From Candidatus Gottesmanbacteria bacterium (lineage in GTDB: Bacteria > Patescibacteriota > Microgenomatia > UBA10105 > UBA927), in assembly GCA_023245355.1 (NCBI GenBank), contig JAHFKN010000002.1, positions 8,460-72,459 of the forward strand: a stretch of 64,000 nucleotides of DNA, given 5' to 3'. How positions within the stretch are numbered: position 1 is the first letter of the stretch; every line of letters begins with the position of its first letter. Shown here piece after piece: positions 1 to 63,872 of the stretch. Below the pieces are notes generated by a model. It worked only from the letters and a program-made list of their open reading frames with translations. It did not search any database and was not told where the DNA came from. Position numbers and translations under genes: made by a program.

Positions 1-930
1 ACGCTCACCAGCGGAAAACCGGTGGTTACCGACATTATTCCGTTCGGCAACACCCGAAAAAATGACGTTCTTGGCATTGCATCCTCTCTTGAGCAGGGCT
101 CTGAACATTCCCTGGGAGAAGCAATAGGTACGTATGCAAAAGAACATGCAATCACCCGCAACAAAGTTACGAAGTTCCGGGCCATTGCCGGCCACGGGAT
201 CACCGGCAGCATTCATAAGACGTCCTACTATTTCGGAAACCGGGCGCTTATGAAATCTCAGGATATTTCCGTCGGATCCGCTGAACATGCGATGAGTTCA
301 CTGGAAAAGGAGGGAAAGACGGTCATGTTGCTGTCTGCTAACAAAACCATTCTGGGACTTATCGCTGTTGCCGATACGCTGAAAACCAGCGCAATAAGCA
401 CGGTTACCACGCTTACCCGCCTCGGAATTACCGTCTGGATGATTACCGGTGACAATGAACGTACGGCACATGCAGTAGCAAAAAGCGCCGGAATTACGAA
501 CGTGTTAGCCGGTGTGCTCCCGCAACAAAAGGCAGAAAAAATTACTGAGCTGAAACGCAATAAACGCAGCGTTGTCGCATTTGCCGGCGATGGTATCAAT
601 GATGCCCCGGCACTTGCCGGCGCTGACGTCGGAATTGCTATGGGAACAGGAACAGATGTCGCGATAGAATCAGCCGGAATCACATTACTGAACAAAGACT
701 TAAATAGTGTTGTTTCTGCGATAAAACTATCAAAACAAACACTTGCCATTATCAAACAAAACCTCTTCTGGGCATTTGCGTACAACGTCATACTTATTCC
801 GGTTTCCTCCGGTATTCTCTACCCGTTTACCGGCTGGTTATTAAACCCTGCCATTGCTGCGTTTGCCATGGCAGCAAGCAGCATTTCCGTTGTGGGTAAT
901 TCCCTTCGGCTTAAAGGGGCAAAAATATGA
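1..930 (+). CDS. Heavy-metal translocating P1B-type ATPase, C-terminal portion (5' end outside window)
   Basis: Reading frame is open from position 1. P-type/HAD signature VAFAGDGINDAPALA, then GIAMGTGTDVAIESA, then two C-terminal TM helices. Confidence 0.85.
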   Translation, partial: TLTSGKPVVTDIIPFGNTRKNDVLGIASSLEQGSEHSLGEAIGTYAKEHAITRNKVTKFRAIAGHGITGSIHKTSYYFGNRALMKSQDISVGSAEHAMSSLEKEGKTVMLLSANKTILGLIAVADTLKTSAISTVTTLTRLGITVWMITGDNERTAHAVAKSAGITNVLAGVLPQQKAEKITELKRNKRSVVAFAGDGINDAPALAGADVGIAMGTGTDVAIESAGITLLNKDLNSVVSAIKLSKQTLAIIKQNLFWAFAYNVILIPVSSGILYPFTGWLLNPAIAAFAMAASSISVVGNSLRLKGAKI

Positions 931-27098: not shown

Positions 27099-27171
27099 CG
27101 CGGGGTAGTGTAAAGTTGCACAGGAGGCTCATAATCTCCTAGGCTGGGTGCGATTCCCAGCCCCGCAACCA
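27099..27171 (+). tRNA. tRNA-Met (anticodon CAT), initiator-like C1-A72 mismatch, encoded CCA
   Basis: Acceptor CGCGGGG/CCCCGCA, anticodon loop CUCAUAA, T-stem CUGGG/CCCAG, ends ACCA. The 5'/3' ends resemble E. coli tRNA-fMet, but the anticodon stem lacks the three consecutive G-C pairs and the T-loop is TGCGATT. Confidence 0.7.
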
Positions 27172-30678: not shown

Positions 30679-30750
30679 GCCAGCGTAGCTCAGTGGCAGA
30701 GCAGTGCCTTCATAAGGCATGTGTCGCAGGTCCGAATCCCGCCGCTGGCA
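30679..30750 (+). tRNA. tRNA with CAT anticodon (elongator Met or Ile2/lysidine type; no encoded CCA)
   Basis: Acceptor GCCAGCG/CGCTGGC, D-arm GCTC-AGTGGCA-GAGC, anticodon arm GTGCC-TTCATAA-GGCAT, T-arm GCAGG-TCCGAAT-CCCGC with one A-C mismatch, discriminator A. Confidence 0.7.
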
Positions 30751-30767
30751 CAAAATAAAAATCCCCG

Positions 30768-51564: not shown

Positions 51565-53172
51565 TTACGGGGCGACCTCCTGCCAGATGACCGATAAGTC
51601 TTTCATCGTGTCCGGCATGGTCAGAAGAAGCTGCGGATCATACGTAAAAAGCTCTGCAGACGCATTTATGTTGCCGCCGTATGCATCCAGATCCCGCTGA
51701 AGAAGAAAATTGTCAGCGACGAATACGCCGTTTCCGACAAAACGCGCGGTGAGCGCATTGATGCTGGTGCCCGTCTGAATTAGCCCTGACTCATCCGCCT
51801 TGGTGGCTATATAGACTCCCTCTACAACCGGCGTCGTTGATGACCATGTTGTTCCGACGGTGTCTGCGACCGTGATGGTTCCGTTCACGATAAATGCGAT
51901 GAACCCGTTGCCGGTGATATTTATCCTCCCTCCGATTGTAAGATTCCCGTCCACAAGAATCACGACACGTTCATTGGCCCCGATATTCCAGTTCCCGCTC
52001 GTCGTCATGTTACCGACCACATAATACGGACTATCACAGCTTGCCGCCGTACAATTAGACGCCGGCTTGGTAACCGCAGTAAGATTATCAAACGGAGCTG
52101 ATGTTGTCGGCGTAGTGGGAGACCCGAACCGCCTCAGGAAATAATCATAGTAATTCACGGATGTCCTGCCCGCATTCACCTGCCAATTAGTACTGGAAAC
52201 GAGCGTCGCACCTTCGGAAAACGGATCGGAATCGAAATCATACAGCGTCCCGTACGACAATACCCCCGGATATCCGTTTGCTGAATCGGTAACGAACGTC
52301 CGCGGAAGGACTGCGGGAACGAATGACCGGACATTGCCCGACGCATATACATCTCCGCCCTCCGCTTGTACCCATGCCGTTCCCAATGTATATCCTATGT
52401 CCCACCGGAGCGTTTGGTTTGCGGCCAATGTACGCGACAACCCTTGACCCGTCAGTCCCGTCGTTACATTGGTCCAACACGCCCGTGCGTATGCCCAGTC
52501 TGCTGTGGGGGGAATAATATCCATCGTATAGGAACCGGTCACAATATTGGCAAATTGCTCATACACTGCTCCGACCTGAAACTGCGGAATAGGCTGACTT
52601 GCTGACGACGGAGTAAATCCGATAGACGTACCGGTAATATCTAAGTCTGTTGTCGGCACTGCGCGGATAGCTGCACATGACGTATCCGCAGGATCCACCC
52701 GCACTGCCCGCGCCTGAATCGTTCCGACCGGAACGGAGGTGGCCGTCGGTGCAGGAGGCACGGTAGGCTCTGACGGAGGTGTGTTTGTGGCTCCGCCACC
52801 CGGACCCGTAGGGGTACAACAATACTGTGTTTGCCCTAATTGCGGATTATTATTACACACACGGAATTGCCAACAAGCGTCACATGCACCCCACGAACCC
52901 CACCCGGTCGTACAGGAGGATTGATTCGTTGAACAGGTAAAACCACAGAATCCGGTATTATGATTACAAAACGGAGTACACGTCGTCGCTATCCCCGGAA
53001 TACCGTTATCGGCACACAATCCATTCGTACATACGTCACCGCAGGTGCCCGAAGAACAAAGCGGCATCGTCGGGAAGGGAGTACCTCCATACACACCGCC
53101 CTGTGCAGACACTGAAGATCGAAGACACGTCAACACCAACACGACAAGGACAATCCGCTGAAAAAGCCTCAT
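51565..53172 (-). CDS. Secreted Cys-rich protein with Pro/Thr linker and beta-rich C-terminal domain
   Basis: Signal peptide MRLFQRIVLVVLVLTCLRSSVSA. About 30 Cys in the first 120 mature residues, then a PT-rich linker, then repetitive N/T/G-rich beta-strand-like sequence. Confidence 0.5.
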   Translation of the reverse strand: MRLFQRIVLVVLVLTCLRSSVSAQGGVYGGTPFPTMPLCSSGTCGDVCTNGLCADNGIPGIATTCTPFCNHNTGFCGFTCSTNQSSCTTGWGSWGACDACWQFRVCNNNPQLGQTQYCCTPTGPGGGATNTPPSEPTVPPAPTATSVPVGTIQARAVRVDPADTSCAAIRAVPTTDLDITGTSIGFTPSSASQPIPQFQVGAVYEQFANIVTGSYTMDIIPPTADWAYARACWTNVTTGLTGQGLSRTLAANQTLRWDIGYTLGTAWVQAEGGDVYASGNVRSFVPAVLPRTFVTDSANGYPGVLSYGTLYDFDSDPFSEGATLVSSTNWQVNAGRTSVNYYDYFLRRFGSPTTPTTSAPFDNLTAVTKPASNCTAASCDSPYYVVGNMTTSGNWNIGANERVVILVDGNLTIGGRINITGNGFIAFIVNGTITVADTVGTTWSSTTPVVEGVYIATKADESGLIQTGTSINALTARFVGNGVFVADNFLLQRDLDAYGGNINASAELFTYDPQLLLTMPDTMKDLSVIWQEVAP

Positions 53173-53225
53173 AAGATCAGCCTATCAAAACCGGGACTCG
53201 CTTTCAATACGGGGAGCAAAACGAT

Positions 53226-55553
53226 CTAGCGAATGGTAATCAATGAGGGATATATTAATGTTTGTGCCTCATCTGGGAAAAAATACGTAGTCCATGCAGG
53301 ATCATTTTTATCCTGGAACCGGAAACTCAATGACGATGATGCCGGGGAAAGCATTTTAAATATACCGTCTAACCAATACTTATAATATCTTTCCTCAACA
53401 GCAGGCTTGTTTTTGTTATTAGGAGCTAACAGGGAACCAAAATCTCTATCAACCTGTTTTGATAACGCTTCTAACGACGGTTGAGTGACGTTAAGCGTCA
53501 CAATGGGACCTAGCGTATCGAAAAATCCTTCTTGTGCCCTTACGATAGGTAGTACTTCCAGCCTTGTTCCAGGAGTCGCAGCCTGAGCAAGAAGACGATC
53601 GTATGCATTTCTATTTCCCTCATCTCCCATAATTTCAGGACCACTTGCCGCAAACATTATCTTCCATTCGTCCCCTTTAGGATTACGCGGATTGGCTGGG
53701 TCTAACCACTTCGTTGGAAAAAATTCATATTGAGTTCCATTTGGACTAATCATTGCAAACCACGCATCTATGATCTGAACCGGACTATTTGCTTTGGTTC
53801 TTCCTGGGAATCCCATCGCCTGATTCCGTAAATACGCAAAGCTGGACAACTCACCCGTGTTTGCATTCATCAAAAATTGTTGGAACGCAATTTCCGGTCC
53901 CGGCGTATCTTTCCACCAGGAAACGGCTTCCTCAGAAAATGCTTCAGGAAACTCTACTATTGTCACCCGCAGAGGAATTTCCGCTTTATCATAGGGGATA
54001 ATCACCGGCTTGTGGATATCCGGACTAATCTCCACGGCAAACCATGCTTTTTCCTCCTGTATCCAGTACAGTTTTTTGCCGTCTACTGTCGTCATGACCG
54101 GCGTATTACCATATTCATTTTTGCTGGCGAGATCTTCATGCAGCGTATTCGGATCAACCTGCATAGTTTCCGTCGTCGGCTGTCCCTGAGCATTTAATAC
54201 CTGTACGCTCGTACTGAATTTACCCTCCGCCTCAGCGGTGATAGACGCTTCGAGTCCGCTATGGATTTTCATCGCAGCCGCCTGCTCAGGCGCAAGCCTG
54301 AGAGACTCAATCGAAAACTGTTGCACGATCGCAGGATTTTCCACAAACTGTGCGTCACTTCCCGGCGCGTAGATTACGACGGGCATATGCTCTGCATCGG
54401 CGACACCCCATACGGGATATTCCCCTTTATATCCGCCGATGATACTGTCAGCGGAATACCCGCTCGGAAGGGCAACCCAGATATATTTGGGCGCTTCAGT
54501 CGGGGCAAAATCAAACCATTCCGCATTAGGGTGGTAGGAAACGTTGTCCGCTCCCGCTGCGATGACGGCTACCTCAGTGACTCCGCCGTTTACTCTCGTA
54601 AGCAGCACAAAGTTTTTGCTGTAGTCAGCTGACCAGAATACCTTGGCGCCCTGTTCTCCTGTTACTTTTGCCCCAATTGCCTCTACATTCTTGCTGAACG
54701 CATCCAGCGCATATTCAGGCAACTTCAACGGATTTGCCGCTGTCAGCTGATCCGGTGTCGCACCGGCAGAAAATGAAACCTGGTCAAATATACCGGCATC
54801 ATGGAAATCAGGGTGCGAAGCCAGATCAATCGGCGGAGGAGGAGTTTCCGTCTGAAAGCCGGGCGGGGGAGTCAGAGTTTCCGTGGCTATTGCAGGTGCC
54901 GTTATGGCAGGAGCCGGCCGGGTTTCCGTCACAATGACGGGTGAAGTTGCTGATGGAACAGCGCAGCCGGCTATAAGAGCTGACAAGCTCGCTAGCAGCA
55001 GTGCTCTGCGTTTATTAAACTTTCCGAACGGGATAAGCGCTGCATATGCAACCTCATCAAACGTGCCAAACGGCAATTGCGGCTCGTTTCTGGGGGTTTC
55101 CGTCTGAGCTGTAATGGTGGCCATCTGCACGCGGGTATTGAGCGCTTCAACTGCACGGTTTTCTCTGGCGGCACTGCCGGCCTGCGCTACCCATTGCTCA
55201 CTTTGTCGGGCTTTATGATTTGTTTTGGTCGCTTGGCGCTCTCTGTGGGAATTCGTCCGTGAAACGGGCGCCTGGTCAAAGCCGCCCTGCGGCTGTCCGA
55301 ATGAACTTGAAGGAATTGCTGCTATAGACTTGCCGTGATACACAACCTCGACATGGGAATGCCTGTCTGCGTGGCTGCCGAATCCTAAATCACCGGTAAA
55401 TGTCTGAGAAATAGCCGGCCTGTTGGAAAATATTTCAGCGACTTTTGAATTGTTTACTTCAATAGCGCGCCCTGCGCCCCAAATTGTCGCACCGAGCAAG
55501 ATACCATGCCGTACAGCCCTTCCAAGAGGATACCTCTCTTTATGTTGCTGCAT
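53226..55553 (-). CDS. Large hypothetical lipoprotein/secreted protein
   Basis: Internal lipoprotein-type signal (KFNKRRALLLASLSALIAGC) about 190 aa into the ORF. The true start may be the internal MATITAQ at 55124. Confidence 0.5.
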   Translation of the reverse strand: MQQHKERYPLGRAVRHGILLGATIWGAGRAIEVNNSKVAEIFSNRPAISQTFTGDLGFGSHADRHSHVEVVYHGKSIAAIPSSSFGQPQGGFDQAPVSRTNSHRERQATKTNHKARQSEQWVAQAGSAARENRAVEALNTRVQMATITAQTETPRNEPQLPFGTFDEVAYAALIPFGKFNKRRALLLASLSALIAGCAVPSATSPVIVTETRPAPAITAPAIATETLTPPPGFQTETPPPPIDLASHPDFHDAGIFDQVSFSAGATPDQLTAANPLKLPEYALDAFSKNVEAIGAKVTGEQGAKVFWSADYSKNFVLLTRVNGGVTEVAVIAAGADNVSYHPNAEWFDFAPTEAPKYIWVALPSGYSADSIIGGYKGEYPVWGVADAEHMPVVIYAPGSDAQFVENPAIVQQFSIESLRLAPEQAAAMKIHSGLEASITAEAEGKFSTSVQVLNAQGQPTTETMQVDPNTLHEDLASKNEYGNTPVMTTVDGKKLYWIQEEKAWFAVEISPDIHKPVIIPYDKAEIPLRVTIVEFPEAFSEEAVSWWKDTPGPEIAFQQFLMNANTGELSSFAYLRNQAMGFPGRTKANSPVQIIDAWFAMISPNGTQYEFFPTKWLDPANPRNPKGDEWKIMFAASGPEIMGDEGNRNAYDRLLAQAATPGTRLEVLPIVRAQEGFFDTLGPIVTLNVTQPSLEALSKQVDRDFGSLLAPNNKNKPAVEERYYKYWLDGIFKMLSPASSSLSFRFQDKNDPAWTTYFFPDEAQTLIYPSLITIR

Positions 55554-56443: not shown

Positions 56444-57445
56444 ATGATCTACTACTCAAATTCGCCGCTTGAAACGCCGCATATGACGTTCATCGGCCGG
56501 TGGTCTCCGTTTCACAACGGACATAAAGCAATCATCACCAAAAAAATTACGGAAAATCCGCTCCTTCCCGTGCTCATTCTCGTGCGCCACACGCTCACGG
56601 ATCAATATACGGCATCGGCACGGGCTATGTATATCAAACAGTGGATGACAGATCAACATATCAAGGGAACCATCATGATCATCCCGAACGTAGAAGGCGT
56701 GTATTGGGGACGGGGAGTCGGCTACAAAACTGAGCCAGTATCCGTAGATGAAGCCATCACATCCATATCCGGAACGGACATCCGCCGCAGAATGCAGGAC
56801 AAAAAATCTTCCTGGCATAATCTGGTTGCCGTCCCGGAATCTGCGTATTTATTGACCCCCGCCGTTTCATCCATCGTAGAACAGGGACTTGTCGTGTGGC
56901 TGACGGGGTGCCCTTCAAGCGGAAAAACAACGATCGCACGTGCATTTATACACCACGTTGCAGCAACCTACCCGCATCTTAAAACACAGCTTCTTGACGG
57001 AGATGACATGCGTGCTACTCCGGTTGCTGCCGGGGTAGGATTCAGCAAAAAAGACCGGGCAGATCATATCCTGCGGATGGCGTATATCGCAAAAATGTTT
57101 GCCGATCACGGCATTTTGGTCGTATGCGCTTTCGTTTCTCCCGATCGCCGCATACGTATGAAAGCCAAAAAAATCATCGGAAAAAACCGGTATATAGAAG
57201 TGTATGTCCGGGCTTCCAAATCTACCCGGATGAAGCGGGACACCAAGGGCATGTATAAACAAGCAGCGAAAGGCGCTTTACAAAACTTCACCGGATACAA
57301 CGCATTCTATGAAGCCCCTAAAAAACCGGACGTTCTCTGTGATACGGACACGCAGGATGTTTCTTCCTGCGTTACCGCCGTTTCATCCCGTGTGTTTTCC
57401 CGGTCAACTTCGCATACCTCTGATTCGGCCGGCCGGAATAAGTGA
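56444..57445 (+). CDS. Bifunctional cytidylyltransferase-like nucleotidyltransferase / adenylyl-sulfate (APS) kinase fusion
   Basis: N-terminal FIGRWSPFHNGH (HxGH) and ISGTDIRRRM (ISxTxIR). C-terminal VVWLTGCPSSGKTTIA, LDGDDMR, GFSKKDRADHILRMAYIAKMF, VVCAFVSPDRRIR, typical of CysC. Confidence 0.75.
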   Translation: MIYYSNSPLETPHMTFIGRWSPFHNGHKAIITKKITENPLLPVLILVRHTLTDQYTASARAMYIKQWMTDQHIKGTIMIIPNVEGVYWGRGVGYKTEPVSVDEAITSISGTDIRRRMQDKKSSWHNLVAVPESAYLLTPAVSSIVEQGLVVWLTGCPSSGKTTIARAFIHHVAATYPHLKTQLLDGDDMRATPVAAGVGFSKKDRADHILRMAYIAKMFADHGILVVCAFVSPDRRIRMKAKKIIGKNRYIEVYVRASKSTRMKRDTKGMYKQAAKGALQNFTGYNAFYEAPKKPDVLCDTDTQDVSSCVTAVSSRVFSRSTSHTSDSAGRNK

Positions 57446-58360
57446 ATACACTGCGTACCCCAGCAAATATCCCAGCCTGACACCTGACCTGTATACGGCA
57501 GCCAGTACGGAAAAAGGTCTTTTGCCGTACAAATTACCGGAATGCGCACTGTTGCCAGCCGCATGGTTCAGACCGCGTGTCAGAAGATAATACGATAGCG
57601 TAAATTCCCGGTCAGAAAAATACAGACGCTGGAACAGTGCCGCCGCTCTTCCATAGCTGTATGCCGCCTTCATTTCTTCCGTAAAAACTACCTGATGCGT
57701 CGTGTGCATCACTTTTACCGACGGGGCAAACAGCAGGGGAATATGACGCGCAATACACCGGTATGCCAGATCATCCTGCTCCCCGATAAACGGGAAAACT
57801 TCAGCGTTAAACGGGCCGTCGAGTTTGGAAAACACGGACCGGTAAGAAAACATATTTCCGGCTAACAGTGTCACGAGGCGGGTGCCCGGCGCTGAGTTCT
57901 GCCCCATGCCGGATGCCGCCGCGTCGCGGGCGAATGTTTCGCGTTTAAGGTCTTCCAATTCGCCCCGGCGGGTATACCGCTGTGTTGCGTGCCCCTGATA
58001 CACCCCGCGGGGATACTTTTTTTTGTCATTTAGGAGAGTGAGCTTAATATGCAAAACCCAGTCGGAAGCCACAAAGCTGTCGTCATCGAGGAATGCCACA
58101 CCCTCTTTTGTCGCATGCCGGAACCCCGTATTCCGGGCCCAGGAAGCGCCTTTTCTGGGTTCGTTAAGATACATGACGGATTTGTTCATATTGGCTCCTG
58201 CCGCGTCATATCTTTCGGCTGAATTTATCACGATGATGACTTCATCGCGTTCGGTAATCTGAGGCAGAAGATGAGAAAGGCAAACGGATAATGATTCCGG
58301 CCGCTTATTGGTAGGAATAATCACGGAAACTGACATTGTCTCTGTACGAAGACGCTGCAT
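57404..58360 (-). CDS. Glycosyltransferase family 2
   Basis: MSVSVIIPTNKRPESLSVCL and the DDD region FLDDDSF. The 3' end overlaps the convergent APS-kinase gene by 42 nt. Confidence 0.75.
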   Translation of the reverse strand: MQRLRTETMSVSVIIPTNKRPESLSVCLSHLLPQITERDEVIIVINSAERYDAAGANMNKSVMYLNEPRKGASWARNTGFRHATKEGVAFLDDDSFVASDWVLHIKLTLLNDKKKYPRGVYQGHATQRYTRRGELEDLKRETFARDAAASGMGQNSAPGTRLVTLLAGNMFSYRSVFSKLDGPFNAEVFPFIGEQDDLAYRCIARHIPLLFAPSVKVMHTTHQVVFTEEMKAAYSYGRAAALFQRLYFSDREFTLSYYLLTRGLNHAAGNSAHSGNLYGKRPFSVLAAVYRSGVRLGYLLGYAVYSLIPAGRIRGMRS

Positions 58361-58380
58361 GGTTTGATTATGAACGCAAA

Positions 58381-58647
58381 TTAGCTATTCACGCGAATCA
58401 GAAGACCGTCACGGATATATTGTGTGACAAAGTCGCGCACGTCATGCTCAGCCTGAGAGACGGGAATTCCGTACTTAGTAGCAATTTGACTGATAAGCCG
58501 GTCTATAACAACGGGTTTTTTTGTCCGCTGCCAGATGTCACCGGCGGTCTGGTTCAGCTGACGGAGATATTTCCTGTTTTTTTCCAGAAGAACCCATGAG
58601 GAACCGATGCGGCGGCTGACAACGTGGGGACTCTGTTGAACGATCAT
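58381..58647 (-). CDS. PqqD-family protein (RiPP recognition element-like)
   Basis: WVLLEKNRKYLRQLNQTAGDIWQ...RLISQIATKYGIPVSQAEHDVRDFVTQYIRDGLL matches the PqqD/RRE winged-helix pattern. Confidence 0.7.
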   Translation of the reverse strand: MIVQQSPHVVSRRIGSSWVLLEKNRKYLRQLNQTAGDIWQRTKKPVVIDRLISQIATKYGIPVSQAEHDVRDFVTQYIRDGLLIRVNS

Positions 58648-58659
58648 GAACGCTGTAGA

Positions 58660-58749
58660 TTATGTCTCAACCAACATTACGGTTATCTTGCTTCGGGTAT
58701 CAGAAGGCTTCTGATATTTGACCACTTTCACCTGAGATTTTTTCTTCAT
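58660..58749 (-). CDS. Candidate 29-aa Lys-rich small peptide ORF (MKKKSQVKVVKYQKPSDTRSKITVMLVET)
   Basis: Not in the supplied ORF track because it is under 60 aa. ATG is preceded by GAGGGGG about 10 nt upstream. Stop lies 12 nt before the PqqD start. It sits between the S26-like peptidase and PqqD on the same strand. Confidence 0.25.
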   Translation of the reverse strand: MKKKSQVKVVKYQKPSDTRSKITVMLVET

Positions 58750-58844
58750 AACACAAATACCCCCTCTTCATAAGAGAGCGTAACAAAACCATCACGGAAT
58801 TGTCAAGCTAATACGCACATATTTCTCGTTGCGTTTTGGCCGGT

Positions 58845-59279
58845 TCAGATCAGGACTTTTCCGATAAAATTGCCCTGTCTCACCCTGTATGTATCGGGTG
58901 TCATAAACTTGTCACCCTTGGTTACGACTGCCTTTTGTCCCTTTACCAGTAACACTTTTATAACCCTGTGAACGATTATTTTCCGCCGCTTGCGGACTAC
59001 GTACGCGATAATGTCGTTTGTCTGTATAACATCAAACGGAACGCGGAAAATCCTGACTTCCTGAGTCACGCGTATAGCAGGCTCCATGCTGTCTGAAGCT
59101 GCCGTTGCCGTAAACGACTGGCCCATGGGCAGCAGTTTTGCCAATTGGATGATACTGTCCTGCGAATGCTGTAAGATGATATCGCGCTTGACTGGCGTCC
59201 CGTGCATATACAATCGTATCGTATCAAATAGCCGCTCACCATGAATACCTCGCAGGATCCCGTATACATACTGCTGCAT
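58845..59279 (-). CDS. S24/S26-family (signal-peptidase-like) serine peptidase, apparently soluble
   Basis: SDSMEP (GDSMxP Ser box), RVIK Lys box region, and TKGDKFMTPDTY resembling the GDNRxxSxDSR box. No N-terminal TM. The start probably lies internal (59207 or 59126) because 59279 overlaps the divergent sulfotransferase start. Confidence 0.55.
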   Translation of the reverse strand: MQQYVYGILRGIHGERLFDTIRLYMHGTPVKRDIILQHSQDSIIQLAKLLPMGQSFTATAASDSMEPAIRVTQEVRIFRVPFDVIQTNDIIAYVVRKRRKIIVHRVIKVLLVKGQKAVVTKGDKFMTPDTYRVRQGNFIGKVLI

Positions 59280-60053
59280 ATTCCCAAATGCGCAGGATTT
59301 TCCATGTCATCCCATATGCTTACGTTTTTTCATGCCGACAAATACTGCGGCCTCTACACGTCTATGGGTCCGCTTCTAGAGAACAGATCCATGATAGAGG
59401 CATATCTGACACACCTCCCGGGCAAAAAACTCAATTCACTCCGCGTTATAGCCGGGCACGGCGCATATTACGGTATTCATACCTATCTGCAAAGACCGGT
59501 GCGGTACGTGGTATTTTTGCGTCATCCGTTTCACCGGTCGCGTTCGCACTATGCGCATATGGCACAAAATACGCATGCCGGCCTGCCGGCGGACATCCCG
59601 GTACTGGATAAGGGCGGGGTACAAATTCCGTTTGCGGAATGGATGAGACTTCGAAGCATCACTCATGATTTTATGACACGGTTTTTGTATGAAAAATTCT
59701 TTCCGTCTGCAATACGCGGAGAAGTGACCGACCAGCATCTTACAAACGTGCTGGGAGTATTGAATACGTTTTATTTTGTGGGGCTGACAGAGCACCAGAC
59801 GCATCATCGGTTTTTATATGATTGCTTGGGGCTGCCGGTATATGCGCCGCGCGAAAATGTCACGGATACACGCTTTGTACCTCCCGCCGTACCGGACAGC
59901 TCCATCAGCCGGTATCTTCTGCAGGACAGCCGATTATATAATTATGCCCGGGCAATGCCGCGCCCTGCATTATCACGGGTGAAGCGGGCAGACCTATTGA
60001 TGAAATACATAAGAGACCGCGCGCGGTTTAGCATCCGGGGCAACAGGATATGA
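59241..60053 (+). CDS. Sulfotransferase-family protein (PAPS-dependent)
   Basis: 5'-PSB motif ILLHIPKCAGFS and 3'-PB motif FLRHPFHRSRSHY. Confidence 0.7.
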   Translation: MNTSQDPVYILLHIPKCAGFSMSSHMLTFFHADKYCGLYTSMGPLLENRSMIEAYLTHLPGKKLNSLRVIAGHGAYYGIHTYLQRPVRYVVFLRHPFHRSRSHYAHMAQNTHAGLPADIPVLDKGGVQIPFAEWMRLRSITHDFMTRFLYEKFFPSAIRGEVTDQHLTNVLGVLNTFYFVGLTEHQTHHRFLYDCLGLPVYAPRENVTDTRFVPPAVPDSSISRYLLQDSRLYNYARAMPRPALSRVKRADLLMKYIRDRARFSIRGNRI

Positions 60054-60967
60054 AACCTACTCATACCGGTTTTTATAAACATCTTGTCCGTCAGCACGAA
60101 GACATTTCTCTTATACGGAGCACGGAAACAATGATCCGGTCACTCCGGAAGGACGTATTCCGCCTGCCTGACGCGGGAGGGTCTGCAGTACTCCTCCTGT
60201 CCGGCGGCCTGGATTCCGTGATTGCGTGGGAAATGCTGCTGGGGCAGTATCGCCTTCACGTATATCCGCTGGTAGTGTCACACGGTTTGTTGGATCCTCA
60301 AGACGAAGTAGTCCGGAAATTCCGTACGGTATTCCGGAAAAAATATGCTGACAGGTACCACGAACCGTATATCGTCCGCGCCCCGGCTTCACACGGAAAC
60401 TTTCATACAAAAATTCTCAACGACGCGCCTCCTGACATGCTTCTTAAATATTTTGACCCGGCCAATCAGACGGTAAAAGTTCCGTTTTGGGGAGCGAATG
60501 TGTTTACGGCATATCGGGGATATATGTATCTTCAATATCTGACGTTTACGCTGCCATCCCCGGTAACAACCATCATATACGGCGCGACGGCAGATGACGG
60601 ATTGTTTATACCCAGCCAGACGTACGCATTCATGCGGCTTACCATGCTCATGCTGATGAAATTTTCCGGCAATCCCGCTCTGCAATTCGGATCTGTTTTT
60701 TATGAGGAATCTTTACGTAATTTCATGACCAAGGCGGACGTGCTTTTATACGGACACCGTGCCGCGTTACCGCTTTTTAAAACATACAGCTGCGACAGGC
60801 GGGGGATATTCCATTGCGGCACGTGCCTGTCCTGCAGGAGCAGGCAATACTGTTTTGACCGGGCAGGGGTTACCGATCAAACCCTGTATACGGACGGCGA
60901 GTCACTTAAGAAACGGCTGAAACAAGTATGGCAACAAACGATAAAAATCATAAAACCCGAACTATGA
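60050..60967 (+). CDS. QueC/ExsB-family PP-loop ATPase (sugar amidotransferase WbpG/PseA-like)
   Basis: LLLSGGLDSVIA PP-loop. C-terminal Zn motif YSCDRRGIFHCGTCLSCRSRQYCF. Confidence 0.7.
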   Translation: MKPTHTGFYKHLVRQHEDISLIRSTETMIRSLRKDVFRLPDAGGSAVLLLSGGLDSVIAWEMLLGQYRLHVYPLVVSHGLLDPQDEVVRKFRTVFRKKYADRYHEPYIVRAPASHGNFHTKILNDAPPDMLLKYFDPANQTVKVPFWGANVFTAYRGYMYLQYLTFTLPSPVTTIIYGATADDGLFIPSQTYAFMRLTMLMLMKFSGNPALQFGSVFYEESLRNFMTKADVLLYGHRAALPLFKTYSCDRRGIFHCGTCLSCRSRQYCFDRAGVTDQTLYTDGESLKKRLKQVWQQTIKIIKPEL

Positions 60968-61710
60968 GCATACTCAAATCCCTACTCCGCAAACCGTACT
61001 GGTTTATTCATGACGCTGCCGGCGCACTCCGGGAGTGGTTCCTCGACTTTATTCCCGTATATCCGACGTATCATCAGTCGCTGCTCAAACGGGCTCTCAG
61101 CCGTACCCTTATACAACAATACAGCGCAGACGAAGGACAGAACGTAAATTTCACCCAGTATTTTCTGGGGTTCGGACTCATACATTATGCAATCATCCGT
61201 AATTACAAACCGGACAACATGTTGTGTATCGGCTCACGAAAGGGTTTCGTTCCGGCCGTCCTTGCTCTTGCATGCCGCGACAACGGGAAGGGTCATGTCG
61301 ATTTTGTGGATGCGGGATATGACGAGGACAAGCCGGATAAACACTGGGGCGGGGTCGGTTTTTGGAAAAAGCATGATCCGCAATCACATTTTGCCAAACT
61401 CGGTGTAGCTGAATTCATTTCGACATATATCATGACAACGGATGCGTTTTCCCGCTCGCACGTTAAAAAACAATACCAATACATATATATCGACGGCGAT
61501 CATTCGTACGCCGGCGTACTACACGACTACACCGTTTTCTGGCCGCGTCTGCAAAAAGGGGGAATGATGGTCTTTCACGATATTGTTGCCCGGGGCTATC
61601 TTGATAAGGGATTATTCGGCGTCCGGAAGTTGTGGAACAAACTAAAAACAAAACACGCAATTCAGTTTCCGTACCCGAAGGAATCCGGATTAGGAATCCT
61701 GCAAAAATAA
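60964..61710 (+). CDS. TylF/CmcI-family class I SAM-dependent O-methyltransferase
   Basis: IYIDGDHSYAGVLHD...GGMMVFHD. Alternative start at 60928. Confidence 0.6.
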   Translation: MSILKSLLRKPYWFIHDAAGALREWFLDFIPVYPTYHQSLLKRALSRTLIQQYSADEGQNVNFTQYFLGFGLIHYAIIRNYKPDNMLCIGSRKGFVPAVLALACRDNGKGHVDFVDAGYDEDKPDKHWGGVGFWKKHDPQSHFAKLGVAEFISTYIMTTDAFSRSHVKKQYQYIYIDGDHSYAGVLHDYTVFWPRLQKGGMMVFHDIVARGYLDKGLFGVRKLWNKLKTKHAIQFPYPKESGLGILQK

Positions 61711-61727
61711 TACCAGAAATATCCTTT

Positions 61728-63050
61728 ATGAAAAACATATTTGTACGCATGCGTAATCTCTGGCGGTATCCCTCATGGCTGTACCGAATGTCAGCGGAAA
61801 AATTTCCTGACGTTTCTTCAGGTAAACTGCGGGTGCTCGCGCGACTTCATGCCGTCAAAAACGAGCTCGGGGAACGCTCAGTAGTAAACAATCTCGGAGC
61901 ACTCTACACCCTGCCGCATCCGCTGGCCGCAAAAACATATGCATCATTTCTGAATCAGAATCCCAACCACCTCGGTCACTGGGCAGACAGACTGCCGCAG
62001 GAAGGCGCGACCATACAACTGGAATATGAAGTAATCCGCGCCATGATTGATCTGTACAGGGCAAATGGGAAAAACCTCACCGGGTATATAACATCTGGCG
62101 CGACCGAGGGAAATATATTCTCTGTCTGGCTCGGTAAAACATATCTGTCTCAATTTTCACCGCCCGAAAAAATCCGTTTATTGATGACAAGCCTGACTCA
62201 TTATTCCGTGAGGAAAGCGGCGGATATCTGCGGCGTGACGTCTGATACCATAGGATTACACACAACGACATGGGCGATGGACCCAGACAGCTTTCTTGAA
62301 ACTGTCCGGCGCCTGCACAAGAAGGGGATTACGGGCATATTATTGCCGCTTACACTCGGATATACATCGACAGGCACGTCCGACGACATCGCCGTCATAT
62401 CGCAGGCAGTAACCCGGCTTCAGAAAGAACTGCCCCGTCTCAGGATATTTGTCTGGATTGATGCGGCCACACAGGGATTAGTCACGCCGTTTCTATCGGA
62501 TTTTCGGCCGTTTCGTTATCCCCATATACAAACGGTCGTAGTGGATTTTCATAAATACGGACTTGTCCCGTATTCAGCGGGGACACTTCTCTACAGACGC
62601 GCCATGCAAACCCTGATTGAACGCCCCATAGAGTACCTGCGCGAAACCGATGCAACACTTTCCGGTTCCCGCCCGGGAGTCACGGCCGCGTCGATTTGGT
62701 CCATGATTCATATCATGGGAAAACAAGGCTACCGGCGCATCATAACGACACAGATGAGCAATAAAAAATATTTTATCCGTGAACTGTTACGTGTGCTGCC
62801 GGAGACAGAGGTTATTACCGGTGCAGACGGCATAAGCTGCGGTATACTATTCCGATCACTTCCCGCCGGAAGACTCCCGAAACACATAGAAGAGAAGTAC
62901 TGGTTTCATGCGGGAACGTCCTCAATCTTTTTTTACCCTGACGGATACAAAAACCTTATACTATACAAGTGTTTTTTCCTCCCTCACATGACAAAAAAAA
63001 TCATTGCCGAATTCATACGGGACCTGGAAAAATCGTCCGGACAACCGTAA
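61728..63050 (+). CDS. Group II PLP-dependent decarboxylase
   Basis: PLP-lysine region VVDFHKYGLVPYSAGTLLYR and the fold-type I body. Start at MKNIFV; the ORF opens at 61632, overlapping the upstream gene. Confidence 0.7.
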   Translation: MKNIFVRMRNLWRYPSWLYRMSAEKFPDVSSGKLRVLARLHAVKNELGERSVVNNLGALYTLPHPLAAKTYASFLNQNPNHLGHWADRLPQEGATIQLEYEVIRAMIDLYRANGKNLTGYITSGATEGNIFSVWLGKTYLSQFSPPEKIRLLMTSLTHYSVRKAADICGVTSDTIGLHTTTWAMDPDSFLETVRRLHKKGITGILLPLTLGYTSTGTSDDIAVISQAVTRLQKELPRLRIFVWIDAATQGLVTPFLSDFRPFRYPHIQTVVVDFHKYGLVPYSAGTLLYRRAMQTLIERPIEYLRETDATLSGSRPGVTAASIWSMIHIMGKQGYRRIITTQMSNKKYFIRELLRVLPETEVITGADGISCGILFRSLPAGRLPKHIEEKYWFHAGTSSIFFYPDGYKNLILYKCFFLPHMTKKIIAEFIRDLEKSSGQP

Positions 63051-63071: not shown

Positions 63072-63872
63072 ATGCTCATATGCGGCATGTCGTATAATAC
63101 CCCCATGAATCATGAACTCCGCCACTATATTGAATTACTAACCAGCATGACTCACAAGGAACTGACCGCCCGGTATAAGCATACGGTGTTCGGATTTCTC
63201 TGGATCTTTATCAATCCGCTGCTGCAGATGATTGTTATCGGATTTATCTTTCCGTTTTTTATTAAAGAAGCAATTCCGCATTATTATCTGTATCTGTTTA
63301 TAGGACTTCTGACATGGAATTTTTTCTCGTTATCTTTATCCAAGTCGTGTGCTTCAATCGTCAACGAACGGTCACTTATCAAAAAAGCGGCATTTCCCCG
63401 GTCGGTCATTCCGATATCCATAATTTTTTCTAACCTGACTAACTATCTTATCGCGTTTGGCTTGTTTCTCATACCAATTCTTCTGGTAAACACACTTACC
63501 ATATATTCCGTATTTTCATTTTTCGGCGGACTCATCATGCTTGTCACGTTTATTATAGGAATCAGCCTGCTTACAAGTGCCCTGAATGTCCGCTTCCGCG
63601 ATATAAACTTTTTTGTGCAGGCTATGCTTATTATTTGGTTCTATGCAACTCCCATCATCTATTCCCTGTCCCAGATACCCGACCGGCTATCCTGGATATG
63701 GCGGCTTAACCCCCTGACCTCGATCCTGCAGCTGATGCAGCACGCGCTCATCGGATCTGCATTACCGGACATTACCATGCTTACGTCAAACAGCCTTATC
63801 ATTGCAGCCATCACTATTTTCGGCATCCTGATTTTCCGCGAAGAAAGCAAAAATTTTGACGACTGGCTATGA
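63072..63872 (+). CDS. ABC-2 type polysaccharide/teichoic-acid exporter permease (Wzm/TagG-like)
   Basis: ELTARYKHTVFGFLWIFINPLLQM N-terminal signature and six TM helices. Confidence 0.75.
   Translation: MLICGMSYNTPMNHELRHYIELLTSMTHKELTARYKHTVFGFLWIFINPLLQMIVIGFIFPFFIKEAIPHYYLYLFIGLLTWNFFSLSLSKSCASIVNERSLIKKAAFPRSVIPISIIFSNLTNYLIAFGLFLIPILLVNTLTIYSVFSFFGGLIMLVTFIIGISLLTSALNVRFRDINFFVQAMLIIWFYATPIIYSLSQIPDRLSWIWRLNPLTSILQLMQHALIGSALPDITMLTSNSLIIAAITIFGILIFREESKNFDDWL

Follow-up and report, generated by a model that had tools for sequence, protein, structure and literature searches.

A conserved mini-peptide, a PqqD-type recognition element and a QueC-like ATPase form a candidate RiPP-type cassette in a Candidatus Gottesmanbacteria genome

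What is the function of a 29-codon open reading frame (ORF) that lies between genes for a soluble peptidase and a PqqD-family protein? The question is raised by a 64,000-nucleotide stretch of DNA from a Candidatus Gottesmanbacteria bacterium (GenBank assembly GCA_023245355.1, contig JAHFKN010000002.1, positions 8,460 to 72,459 of the forward strand), which we call the window and number from its first letter. An earlier, sequence-only reading of the window had proposed that the ORF encodes the precursor of a peptide that is ribosomally synthesized and then post-translationally modified (RiPP). Comparison with related loci shows that the peptide, a RiPP recognition element (RRE) of the PqqD family, a QueC-like PP-loop ATPase, an S26 peptidase, a methyltransferase and an exporter make up one conserved, repeatedly fused unit. 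The explanation that we favor, and regard as probable, is an RRE-dependent, RiPP-type peptide-modification cassette that extends to either side of a divergent promoter region and combines C-terminal chemistry by the QueC-like enzyme with cleavage by the S26 peptidase and ABC-2 export. That this is a real RRE-dependent peptide-modification cassette seems to us very likely; that the chemistry is specifically that of the C-terminal carboxylate is a more tentative proposal, which falls a little short of being probable. The parts of the cassette are as follows.

58381-58647, minus strand: PqqD-family RRE, 88 amino acids (Pfam PqqD, 44.1 bits; cut-off 23.4)
58660-58749, minus strand: putative precursor or scaffold peptide gene, 29 amino acids, MKKKSQVKVVKYQKPSDTRSKITVMLVET (conservation, coding-type substitutions, family profile)
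58760-58806, minus strand: promoter-like and ribosome-binding region of the peptide gene (direct reading of the sequence)
58845-59279, minus strand: anchorless SipW/Sec11-type (S26B) serine peptidase, ORF of 144 amino acids (NCBIfam TIGR02228)
60050-60967, plus strand: QueC-like PP-loop ATPase, 305 amino acids (SGGLDS and zinc motif, subfamily profile)
60928-61710, plus strand: S-adenosylmethionine (SAM)-dependent methyltransferase (Pfam Methyltransf_24, E = 6.8e-18)
61632-63050, plus strand: group II amino-acid decarboxylase dependent on pyridoxal phosphate (PLP) (Pfam Pyridoxal_deC)
63087-63872, plus strand: ABC-2 type exporter permease (Pfam ABC2_membrane on the record for the same contig)
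from about 63869 to beyond the window end, plus strand: partner ABC ATPase (Pfam ABC_tran on the record for the same contig)

We first consider whether the short ORF is a gene. The gene caller skipped it in every copy of the contig (L001, L002 and L009; loci carry L numbers here, and individual QueC-like proteins P numbers), and no Pfam or NCBIfam model matches it. Its stop lies 12 nt ahead of the PqqD start, as the sequence-only reading had noted, and the plausible Shine-Dalgarno sequence that it described is also there: AGAGGGGG, at 58767-58760 (minus strand), 10 nt 5' of the ATG. At L005 and L011, where PqqD is 90% and 83% identical to that of the window, the ORF is intact, with a single conservative change, V9A. 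At L010, with PqqD 54% identical, its counterpart is a 30-residue ORF, MKKQTRKAAVKYQKPADVRTKITVVLAETY, that lies 17 nt ahead of PqqD. The two ORFs differ at 35 of 87 nt, 19 of the differences being at third positions, and 13 of the 24 changed codons are synonymous; the other two frames give stops or unrelated sequence. Because it has been retained beside a 54%-identical PqqD with 13 synonymous codon changes, we conclude from these alignments that the 29-codon ORF is a real, conserved peptide gene. The conservation of a short ORF in related loci, which had been left as a check on the original proposal, is found beside PqqD in all three of these loci (L005, L011 and L010). The overlapping 23-codon frame that had been pointed out as a second candidate does exist, inside a 31-residue GTG ORF at 58700-58795, but it is not conserved in L010, and we rejected it as a gene.

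Upstream of the peptide gene on the minus strand are two promoter-like elements, TTGACA (58806-58801) and TACGCT (58782-58777), separated by an 18-nt spacer. TTGACA and TACG(C/A)T are kept in L005, L011 and L010 amid flanking intergenic DNA that has diverged, from which we infer a promoter role; a consensus promoter scan did not report the element, and its -10 hexamer is weak. A small hairpin, GCTCTCTTATGAAGAGGGGGT, at 58759-58779 (minus strand), overlaps the Shine-Dalgarno-like sequence and is conserved in L005. It could be a translation gate, or a weak terminator after the peptidase gene.

With its position 12 nt upstream of PqqD and a hairpin over its Shine-Dalgarno region, the ORF might instead be a regulatory upstream ORF or leader for PqqD and the glycosyltransferase gene behind it, or the region might be an RNA element. 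We consider this very improbable. The amino-acid sequence is kept despite synonymous turnover, and the peptide gene has no fixed position or downstream gene: L017 and L091-L093 have it downstream of the QueC-like gene, on the opposite strand, and L014 has it on the minus strand with PqqD. The RNA element was set aside, as conservation is at the amino-acid level and Rfam gave no match to the peptide-gene region at E<=1.

Does the peptide belong to a wider family? Related loci were fetched around QueC-like members from one genome collection and one metagenome collection, and their six-frame ORFs were scored with the window proteins; 19 loci were counted, L019 and L023 being left out since the QueC-like gene stands alone there. 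The relatives are labeled mostly Paceibacterota or Patescibacteria, with some uncultured Gammaproteobacteria or Pseudomonadales. Every sufficiently long related locus has an ORF of 20-27 codons (20-32 amino acids in the family as a whole) beside the PqqD or QueC-like gene, in positions and orientations that vary among loci. A peptide profile was built from ten family peptides and tested on six loci outside the seed, where it scored 19.5-33 bits; the best score among controls (64 loci around ordinary QueC genes, 820 kb, 22,459 small ORFs) was 10.2 bits. About 20 related loci have a peptide with the motif K-Y-x-x-P beside PqqD; the 64 control loci have none.

The family peptides, of which MKKYEAPRDKKITLKVVLAETP, MKKYIKPRVKVIDLKVVLAPSGE, MKHYTAPAHKPIALKVVLVS, MKKYEAPKDKKIALKVVLAT and MQKYKKPQLKIIDLKAILVEIE are examples, start with MKK or MQK and share an N-proximal K-Y-x-x-P, a hydrophobic, beta-strand-like K-I-x-L-K-V-V-L stretch and a short variable tail, with at most 14 residues after the YxxP motif. 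They are rich in lysine; the lysine that is common downstream of YxxP is lacking in the window and in L013. In the window peptide the motif is Y12-P15, of the RRE-binding type, and the final residue, T29, lies exactly 17 residues after the tyrosine. The same Tyr-to-Thr spacing of exactly 17 is found in the peptides of L010, L016 and a second module beyond the window (described below), and the number of residues that follow this threonine is 0 in the window, 1 in L010, 1 in L016 and 3 in the second module. The L015 peptide (ending KVVLVS) has no acidic side chain; since this is so, and since the tails vary, the C-terminus is the sole carboxylate common to all of the peptides. A PDB search with two of the peptides, which are too short for it, gave no match.

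Some loci depart from this pattern. The candidate peptides of L021 and L022 are longer, 48-51 amino acids, with the motif [KR]Y[KQ]xP. In L088 (6816-6854), L089 (1505-1543) and L090 (6756-6860), shorter ORFs lie just upstream of the main peptide gene and repeat only the C-terminal half of the main peptide (MLALKVVLVET and MDYKIALKVVLVIPE); these may be truncated second precursors or decayed duplicates.

Which enzyme acts on the peptide? The sequence-only reading had found no radical-SAM enzyme, YcaO, LanM or lasso cyclase. It had missed the QueC-like PP-loop ATPase, which is encoded on the opposite strand at a distance of 790 nt. Of the partners of the peptide and RRE, this is the one most conserved in the related loci. 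It is often found fused to an RRE, and it occurs with PqqD and the peptide in nearly every sufficiently long locus. The protein carries SGGLDS at residues 51-56, a zinc motif of the form C-x7-C-x2-C-x2-C, whose cysteines C248, C256, C259 and C262 are invariant in the alignment, and a 45-residue N-terminal extension. Its structural model (predicted local distance difference test score, pLDDT, 87) matches QueC, YcfA and Cap9, and its nearest solved relatives by sequence are Cap9 (9NTO_B, 7.7e-13), QatC and QueC. It is nevertheless distinct from QueC: it scores 22 bits against TIGR00364, for which the NCBIfam cut-off is 150.3, and the deazaguanine-binding motifs YxQxHxxE, VPxRN and YPDC (as defined in PMC13329287) are present in all six canonical QueC proteins aligned and in none of ten subfamily members. 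The loss of these motifs implies that the substrate has changed from that of QueC. In profile searches about 26 proteins scored at E<=1e-27, followed by a drop to canonical QueC at about 1e-8, and the subfamily comprises 237 representatives (clusters at 50% identity) at E<=1e-30, among 1.84 billion cluster representatives. We therefore regard the QueC-like ATPase as the candidate signature enzyme of the cassette, predicted to act on the peptide. One subfamily member, P0251 (481 amino acids), is fused to a Ham1/ITPase domain and has no RRE.

The QueC family includes defense proteins, and the locus could in principle be an anti-phage module, kin to Qat or to type IV CBASS, an anti-phage signaling system based on cyclic oligonucleotides. 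The nearest solved relatives of the enzyme are indeed defense proteins, and NCBIfam and PADLOC return weak QatC or QueC matches. The PADLOC matches cover the zinc-motif region alone, however, no other module protein matches PADLOC, and the neighbors include no CD-NTase, Cap10, QatA, QatB or QatD partner. Exporter, methyltransferase and decarboxylase fit biosynthesis better. We give a defense function hardly any credence, and the assignment was rejected.

The sequence-only reading had limited the module to four genes. These limits have to be widened to take in the methyltransferase, the PLP decarboxylase and the ABC-2 exporter. Of the 19 related loci, 18 have PqqD along with the QueC-like gene, 15 have an S26 domain (scored with the window S26 protein), 15 have Methyltransf_24, often in two copies, 14 have the ABC ATPase, 13 have the ABC-2 permease and ten have the PLP decarboxylase.

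Fusions link these parts physically. The QueC-like protein bears a C-terminal PqqD domain in L022, L021 and P0031 and, by a family-specific profile, in 44 of the 150 best QueC-like representatives; Pfam confirms the domain in six of ten long members checked. A fusion of the QueC-like protein to S26 is seen in P0142 only, among the same 150 best representatives. An ABC ATPase is fused to S26 in 11 fetched loci (L013, L014, L016-L018 and L088-L093), at least eight of them distinct, as L088/L089 and L091/L093 look like copies; in these the S26 domain forms the C-terminal 100 residues of the ATPase. In L021 a PF14907 (NTP_transf_5) nucleotidyltransferase is fused to an S24-like peptidase. Because domain fusions join the parts in this way, we take them as strong evidence that RRE, QueC-like enzyme, peptidase and exporter would act on one common substrate. 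A conserved peptide gene, an RRE and an RRE-coupled enzyme together bear out the RiPP-like cluster grammar that had been proposed for the locus.

The loci with QueC-like–RRE fusions also carry, at L022 9672-12692 and L021 12335-13603, a stand-alone S24-like peptidase, a sulfatase-family protein and PF14907 nucleotidyltransferases. In two other loci (L017 6164-11756 and L014 9710-16351) the cassette is followed by genes for 3-deoxy-D-arabino-heptulosonate 7-phosphate (DAHP) synthase, 3-dehydroquinate synthase, type I dehydroquinase and two AMP-binding enzymes, which suggests that a shikimate-derived acid is attached there.

In the window, the cassette is interleaved with genes of a different character.

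56444-57445, plus strand: adenosine 5'-phosphosulfate (APS) kinase with an N-terminal nucleotidyltransferase-like domain (APS_kinase 147.7 bits, TIGR00455 162 bits)
57404-58360, minus strand: GT2 glycosyltransferase (Pfam Glycos_transf_2, E = 5e-15)
59241-60053, plus strand: sulfotransferase-like protein, first gene of the divergent operon (Pfam Sulfotransfer_2, borderline)

As originally described, GT2, PqqD, the 29-codon ORF and S26 form a series on the minus strand, flanked by a sulfotransferase and by a kinase that produces 3'-phosphoadenosine 5'-phosphosulfate (PAPS); the sulfotransferase match, at 21.8 bits, is just below the 22-bit Pfam cut-off. The APS kinase would provide PAPS to the sulfotransferase. 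These genes have suggested a glycosylated or sulfated product, or a peptide that serves as carrier for glycan assembly. In its fullest form this alternative has the peptide and PqqD serving a polysaccharide pathway, as glycan primer or carrier with a methyl cap and Wzm/Wzt-like export, and makes the QueC-like protein a sugar amidotransferase. The neighbors of the cassette in the window (Bac_transf, GT2, sulfotransferase, PAPS kinase, ABC-2 transporter) speak for it; a known peptide family to which we return below has its clusters in capsule loci, and some PF06508 members, the WbpG-like proteins, are sugar amidotransferases.

The related loci, however, separate the cassette from these genes. 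Sulfotransferase and APS kinase are confined to the window clade (L005, L011). Only in L005, L010 and L011 does a GT2 come straight after PqqD, with GT2-like ORFs elsewhere in L018, L020 and L021, and six-frame ORF scoring found no GT2 in L013-L017 or L088-L093, so that it is absent from most related loci. In L013 an eight-gene cassette sits between the IF3 and PheT genes, and in L016 the cassette lies beside a Fic gene, in both cases with no glycan genes nearby. From these two contexts we conclude that the cassette is autonomous and the glycan and sulfation setting an add-on. The motif order of the QueC-like protein is moreover that of QueC and Cap9, not the reversed WbpG type, and the protein is fused to RREs, which bind peptides. 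A role as carrier for glycan assembly is weakened accordingly, and we judge it improbable. GT2, sulfotransferase and PAPS kinase lie outside the core, and a glycosylated or sulfated product survives as a possibility specific to the window clade; GT2, putatively co-transcribed with the peptide gene and PqqD, is a clade-specific accessory.

How would the peptide be recognized and cut? The PqqD protein is RRE-type (Pfam, 44.1 bits) and, as had been supposed, is paired with a conserved short peptide gene, the family being present in about 20 loci. Its nearest solved relatives are the lasso RRE PbaB1 (9X90_B, 1.4e-8), LppB (9X8Z_B, 2e-4) and TbiB1, all of them RREs that bind [Y/W]xxP leaders (PMC13381572). 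Its top NCBIfam match is lasso_PqqD_Bac, under the cut-off of that model, and it scores 22.8 bits against TIGR03859, for which the cut-off is 46. The structural model has the beta-beta-beta-alpha-alpha-alpha order of an RRE, at low confidence (pLDDT 59). Homolog searches were nearly empty, with two matches for the peptidase and four for PqqD.

A gap of 197 nt, in which the peptide gene lies, separates the peptidase gene from that of PqqD. The peptidase scores 63.9 bits against TIGR02228, the archaeal/SipW-type "signal peptidase I" model (NCBIfam cut-off 51.85), and among solved structures SEC11A and SEC11C are closest to it. Translation probably begins at M25 (59207), because the longer ORF runs into the beginning of the divergent sulfotransferase gene and the relatives are 120 amino acids long. 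The predicted catalytic residues are S64, H104 and D123, and the motifs SxSMxP, [IV][IV]HR and TKGD (in the window SDSMEP, VHRV and KGD) are conserved in all eight S26 homologs aligned. The N-terminal anchor by which a type I signal peptidase holds its active site outside the membrane was looked for, and the window S26 protein has no such hydrophobic segment; its peak Kyte-Doolittle value over 19 residues, 1.31, is located in the catalytic core. The ABC ATPase to which relatives have this domain fused is a cytoplasmic protein. The lack of a membrane anchor, claimed earlier, therefore holds, and with the TIGR02228 match and the conserved motifs it makes a dedicated peptidase role plausible.

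An S26-type peptidase with an RRE had been said not to be a described RiPP class, a statement that is now outdated. The linear polyphosphorylated peptide (LPP) family of Bacillota, reported in May 2026, comprises LppA, LppB, LppS, LppK, LppN and LppD (PMC13381572). LppS, which is SipW-like, works with the discrete RRE LppB and cuts the leader YxxPxVLxHQxIxFET|xxS after T-1 in an RRE-dependent manner; an HprK-like kinase polyphosphorylates Ser3, and the clusters lie within capsule loci (PMC13381572). The window resembles these systems in having a SipW-like S26B peptidase co-localized with a discrete lasso-type RRE, a YxxP precursor, a leader ending in hydrophobic-E/A-T and a polysaccharide-locus setting; L021 and L022, and these two alone among the related loci, also carry the PF14907 NTP transferase. 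It differs in that Pfam and NCBIfam scans found no kinase and no NTP transferase in the window module, which has instead the QueC-like ATPase, Methyltransf_24, the PLP decarboxylase and an ABC-2 rather than an MsbA-like exporter. The tyrosine is at -18 here and at -16 in LPP, and the relatives of the window are mostly Patescibacteria-type metagenome-assembled genomes, not Bacillota. Finally, LPP precursors have 35-200 amino acids and include a core, whereas the window peptide has 29, ends in VET and has nothing after the threonine. Because it ends exactly at the threonine where LPP leaders are cut, the window peptide looks like an LPP-type leader without an encoded core.

A second module lies at L009 7040-9261, about 4.2-6.4 kb past the right window end (the same region is L002 1-493). 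Its 32-residue peptide (L009 7040-7138), MKQITAPVKKSYKKPAKTSEKIELTAFATVAS, ends FAT|VAS and so resembles the LPP leader end FET|xxS, in which Ser3 is phosphorylated. The peptide is accompanied by a PqqD protein (98 amino acids), an HprK-like P-loop protein (271 amino acids) and a GT2, with a sulfotransferase-like gene on its other side; from the window end to the kinase-like gene the distance is about 4.5 kb. The label ScmC for the 271-residue protein is weak, at 19 bits against a cut-off of 125, and we replaced it with P-loop, HprK-like kinase candidate. To judge from its gene content, the second module looks like a minimal LPP system. In L005, the 94%-identical relative, a called 34-residue gene at 392-496 (minus strand), MKSTAKKEIKADKKQYKKPEVKVEKFVASFYAEH, shares the motif YKKP and adjoins YdjC and PMT_2 genes; it may correspond, in that genome, to the second module.

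If the peptide is a leader without a core, what is modified? A parallel is provided by the late assembly of fosfazinomycin, which involves FzmZ, FzmA, FzmH, FzmT and FzmU (PMC13622209, a preprint of September 2026). FzmA, an Asn-synthetase-like enzyme with a fused RRE, puts hydrazine on the C-terminal carboxylate of a 22-mer YxxP peptide; a methyltransferase acts next, and the product is freed by proteolysis (PMC13622209). Both systems have short ribosomal peptides with YxxP, a 21-22-mer serving as N-terminal YxxP scaffold in fosfazinomycin; both have an ATP-dependent enzyme of the PP-loop superfamily with a fused C-terminal RRE (here in the relatives), and next to it a SAM methyltransferase and a discrete RRE, to which some loci add a nucleotidyltransferase. 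The enzyme is of the QueC family (PF06508) here and Asn-synthetase-like (PF00733) there; our loci have no phosphonate or hydrazine genes, and the S26 peptidase and ABC exporter have no equivalent in fosfazinomycin. The cassette is thus kin to LPP by its peptidase, RRE and leader, and to fosfazinomycin in its logic.

Other precedents bear on the chemistry. ATP activation of a peptide C-terminal carboxylate is known from TsrC, ScdTA and PesC; PesC, of the nitrilobacillins, makes a C-terminal nitrile, and QueC itself carries out carboxylate-to-amide-to-nitrile chemistry (PMC13060819). Those three enzymes belong to another family of the superfamily, and the MNIO and HExxH partners are lacking here. 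Cap9, of type IV CBASS, and QatC are QueC-family enzymes that act on protein substrates (PMC13279940). The window enzyme has in common with them the QueC fold, the SGGxDS loop, the zinc-binding Cys4 and the replacement of a free metabolite by a polypeptide. It differs in lacking both the motifs by which Cap9 binds carboxydeazaguanine (CDG) and QatC's own set, in its partners (an RRE, a mini-peptide and an exporter, with none of the Cap9 and QatC partners named above) and probably in the substrate end, the C-terminus here and an N-terminal glycine there.

Lasso systems of the paeninodin type resemble these loci in their B1-type RRE, [Y/W]xxP leader, HprK-like kinase, PF14907 nucleotidyltransferase and sulfotransferase accessories. 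A Pfam scan of ten genes found no Asn-synthetase-like cyclase (PF00733), no transglutaminase-like B2 peptidase and no radical-SAM domain of the kind found in PqqE or MftC. A lasso core has about 13 residues or more and closes its ring through Asp or Glu at position 7-9; the peptides are far too short to thread, and that of L015 has no acidic residue at all. Assignment to lasso, PQQ or mycofactocin pathways was rejected, the defining enzymes being absent from Pfam and NCBIfam scans and TIGR03859 and MftF scoring below their cut-offs (the GT2 has MftF as its top NCBIfam match, at 70.3 bits, far under 280). The S26-ATPase fusions of the relatives recall another arrangement. Peptidase-containing ABC transporters have an N-terminal C39 cysteine protease on a half-transporter that joins transmembrane and nucleotide-binding domains, and cut after a double glycine. 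Both arrangements attach the domain of a leader peptidase to an ABC exporter, so that cleavage can be coupled to export. In the relatives, by contrast, an S26 Ser/His protease is C-terminal on a separate ABC-2-type ATPase, and in the window the peptidase is a separate protein.

These comparisons lead to a model. PqqD would take up the YxxP segment of the peptide as an extra beta-strand and present the C-terminal end to the QueC-like enzyme and the peptidase. The QueC-like enzyme would adenylate a carboxylate with ATP, most likely the C-terminal alpha-carboxylate of the peptide, and then transfer it to a nitrogen nucleophile. This could be ammonia, with an amide or nitrile as the product, or an amine from the neighboring decarboxylase, a candidate amine supplier whose nearest solved relatives in a PDB sequence search are histidine, serine and tyrosine/aspartate decarboxylases. 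The methyltransferase, for which the same kind of search detected no solved relative, would tailor the appended group, as would, in the window clade, GT2 and the PAPS-fed sulfotransferase. Cleavage by S26 next to the conserved threonine would be coupled to ABC-2 export. The "core" of the peptide may then be the group that the QueC-like enzyme adds.

In one version of this model, the peptide is a scaffold and nothing but a leader. The QueC-like protein would be a C-terminal ligase, of a new RRE-dependent class, that appends a decarboxylase-derived amine to T29; while still on the scaffold, the added group would be methylated and, in the window clade, glycosylated and sulfated as well. S26, which relatives have fused to the exporter ATPase, would next cut after the threonine, release a small molecule for export and regenerate the scaffold. 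This version seems to us unlikely, though worth keeping in view.

Several observations count against our preferred explanation. A profile from distant loci only does place the window ORF top among the small ORFs of the 64 kb, but at 11.1 bits and E of about 0.1, which is just marginal support. The window QueC-like protein has no fused RRE, and a fold search with the low-confidence AlphaFold model of PqqD was not significant. A threonine or serine at the expected position is absent from the peptides of L013, L014, L020, L091 and L092. The decarboxylase is missing from nine of the 19 loci, and GT2 and the sulfation genes from most; because these genes are absent from many loci, there is no universal amine donor or tailoring route. 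Every chemical step is our own inference, and known QueC-family protein modifiers work in reverse, activating a small-molecule carboxylate with a protein amine as the nucleophile (PMC13279940).

This last point raises the alternative that the polarity is the same here, the QueC-like enzyme joining a small-molecule carboxylate, in the manner of Cap9 and QatC, to a lysine of the peptide or to an N-terminus exposed by S26. Cap9 and QatC, its nearest solved relatives, are described as modifying protein N-termini, the peptides are rich in lysine, and the aromatic-acid genes and two AMP-binding enzymes of L014 and L017 could supply an aromatic acid. Yet the enzyme has none of the motifs with which QueC and Cap9 bind their carboxylate substrate (CDG), no lysine downstream of YxxP is conserved throughout (the window and L013 lack the common one), the peptides begin with MKK and not with a glycine motif of the Cap9/QatC type, and the aromatic-acid genes occur in two loci only, with adenylating enzymes of their own. 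We think reversed polarity rather improbable.

Within the literature searched, the QueC-like family has not previously been tied to ribosomal peptides. Full-text searches found no paper linking QueC-like enzymes to RREs, and a 2026 survey of PF06508 makes no mention of peptides, RiPPs or PqqD (PMC13329287). The family is sizeable, with its 237 clusters at 50% identity, and appears unrecognized in that literature. If our explanation is correct, RRE-guided modification of mini-peptides would join preQ0 synthesis, protein deazaguanylation and the sugar/cofactor enzymes as a fourth function of the QueC fold; S26-ABC fusions would be a new way to couple leader removal with export; and an enzyme that derivatizes C-termini would be of practical use for peptide amides, nitriles and conjugates. 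SipW-like leader peptidases would likewise extend beyond Bacillota to mostly uncultivated, small-genome bacteria. Such bacteria are thought to be poor in secondary metabolism. If the peptide is a leader alone, the implication would be a peptide-templated small-molecule pathway across Patescibacteria-type genomes. Gene callers and RiPP miners that ignore ORFs of fewer than 30 codons miss the substrate.

Some features of the window stand apart from the cassette. The N-terminal 140 amino acids of the APS kinase resemble NMN adenylyltransferase, with an HxGH-type motif (FHNGH); this domain may stand in for ATP sulfurylase in compact form, in which case the protein would be a PAPS synthase. On the minus strand, 51565-55553 holds two large ORFs, of 535 and 775 amino acids, without a Pfam hit on record, the former beginning like a signal peptide and rich in Cys in its N-terminal region; L001 and L005 keep both of them beside the cassette. 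The only tRNA genes of the window, two for tRNA-Met (CAT), lie 3.5 kb apart at 27099-27171 and 30679-30751.

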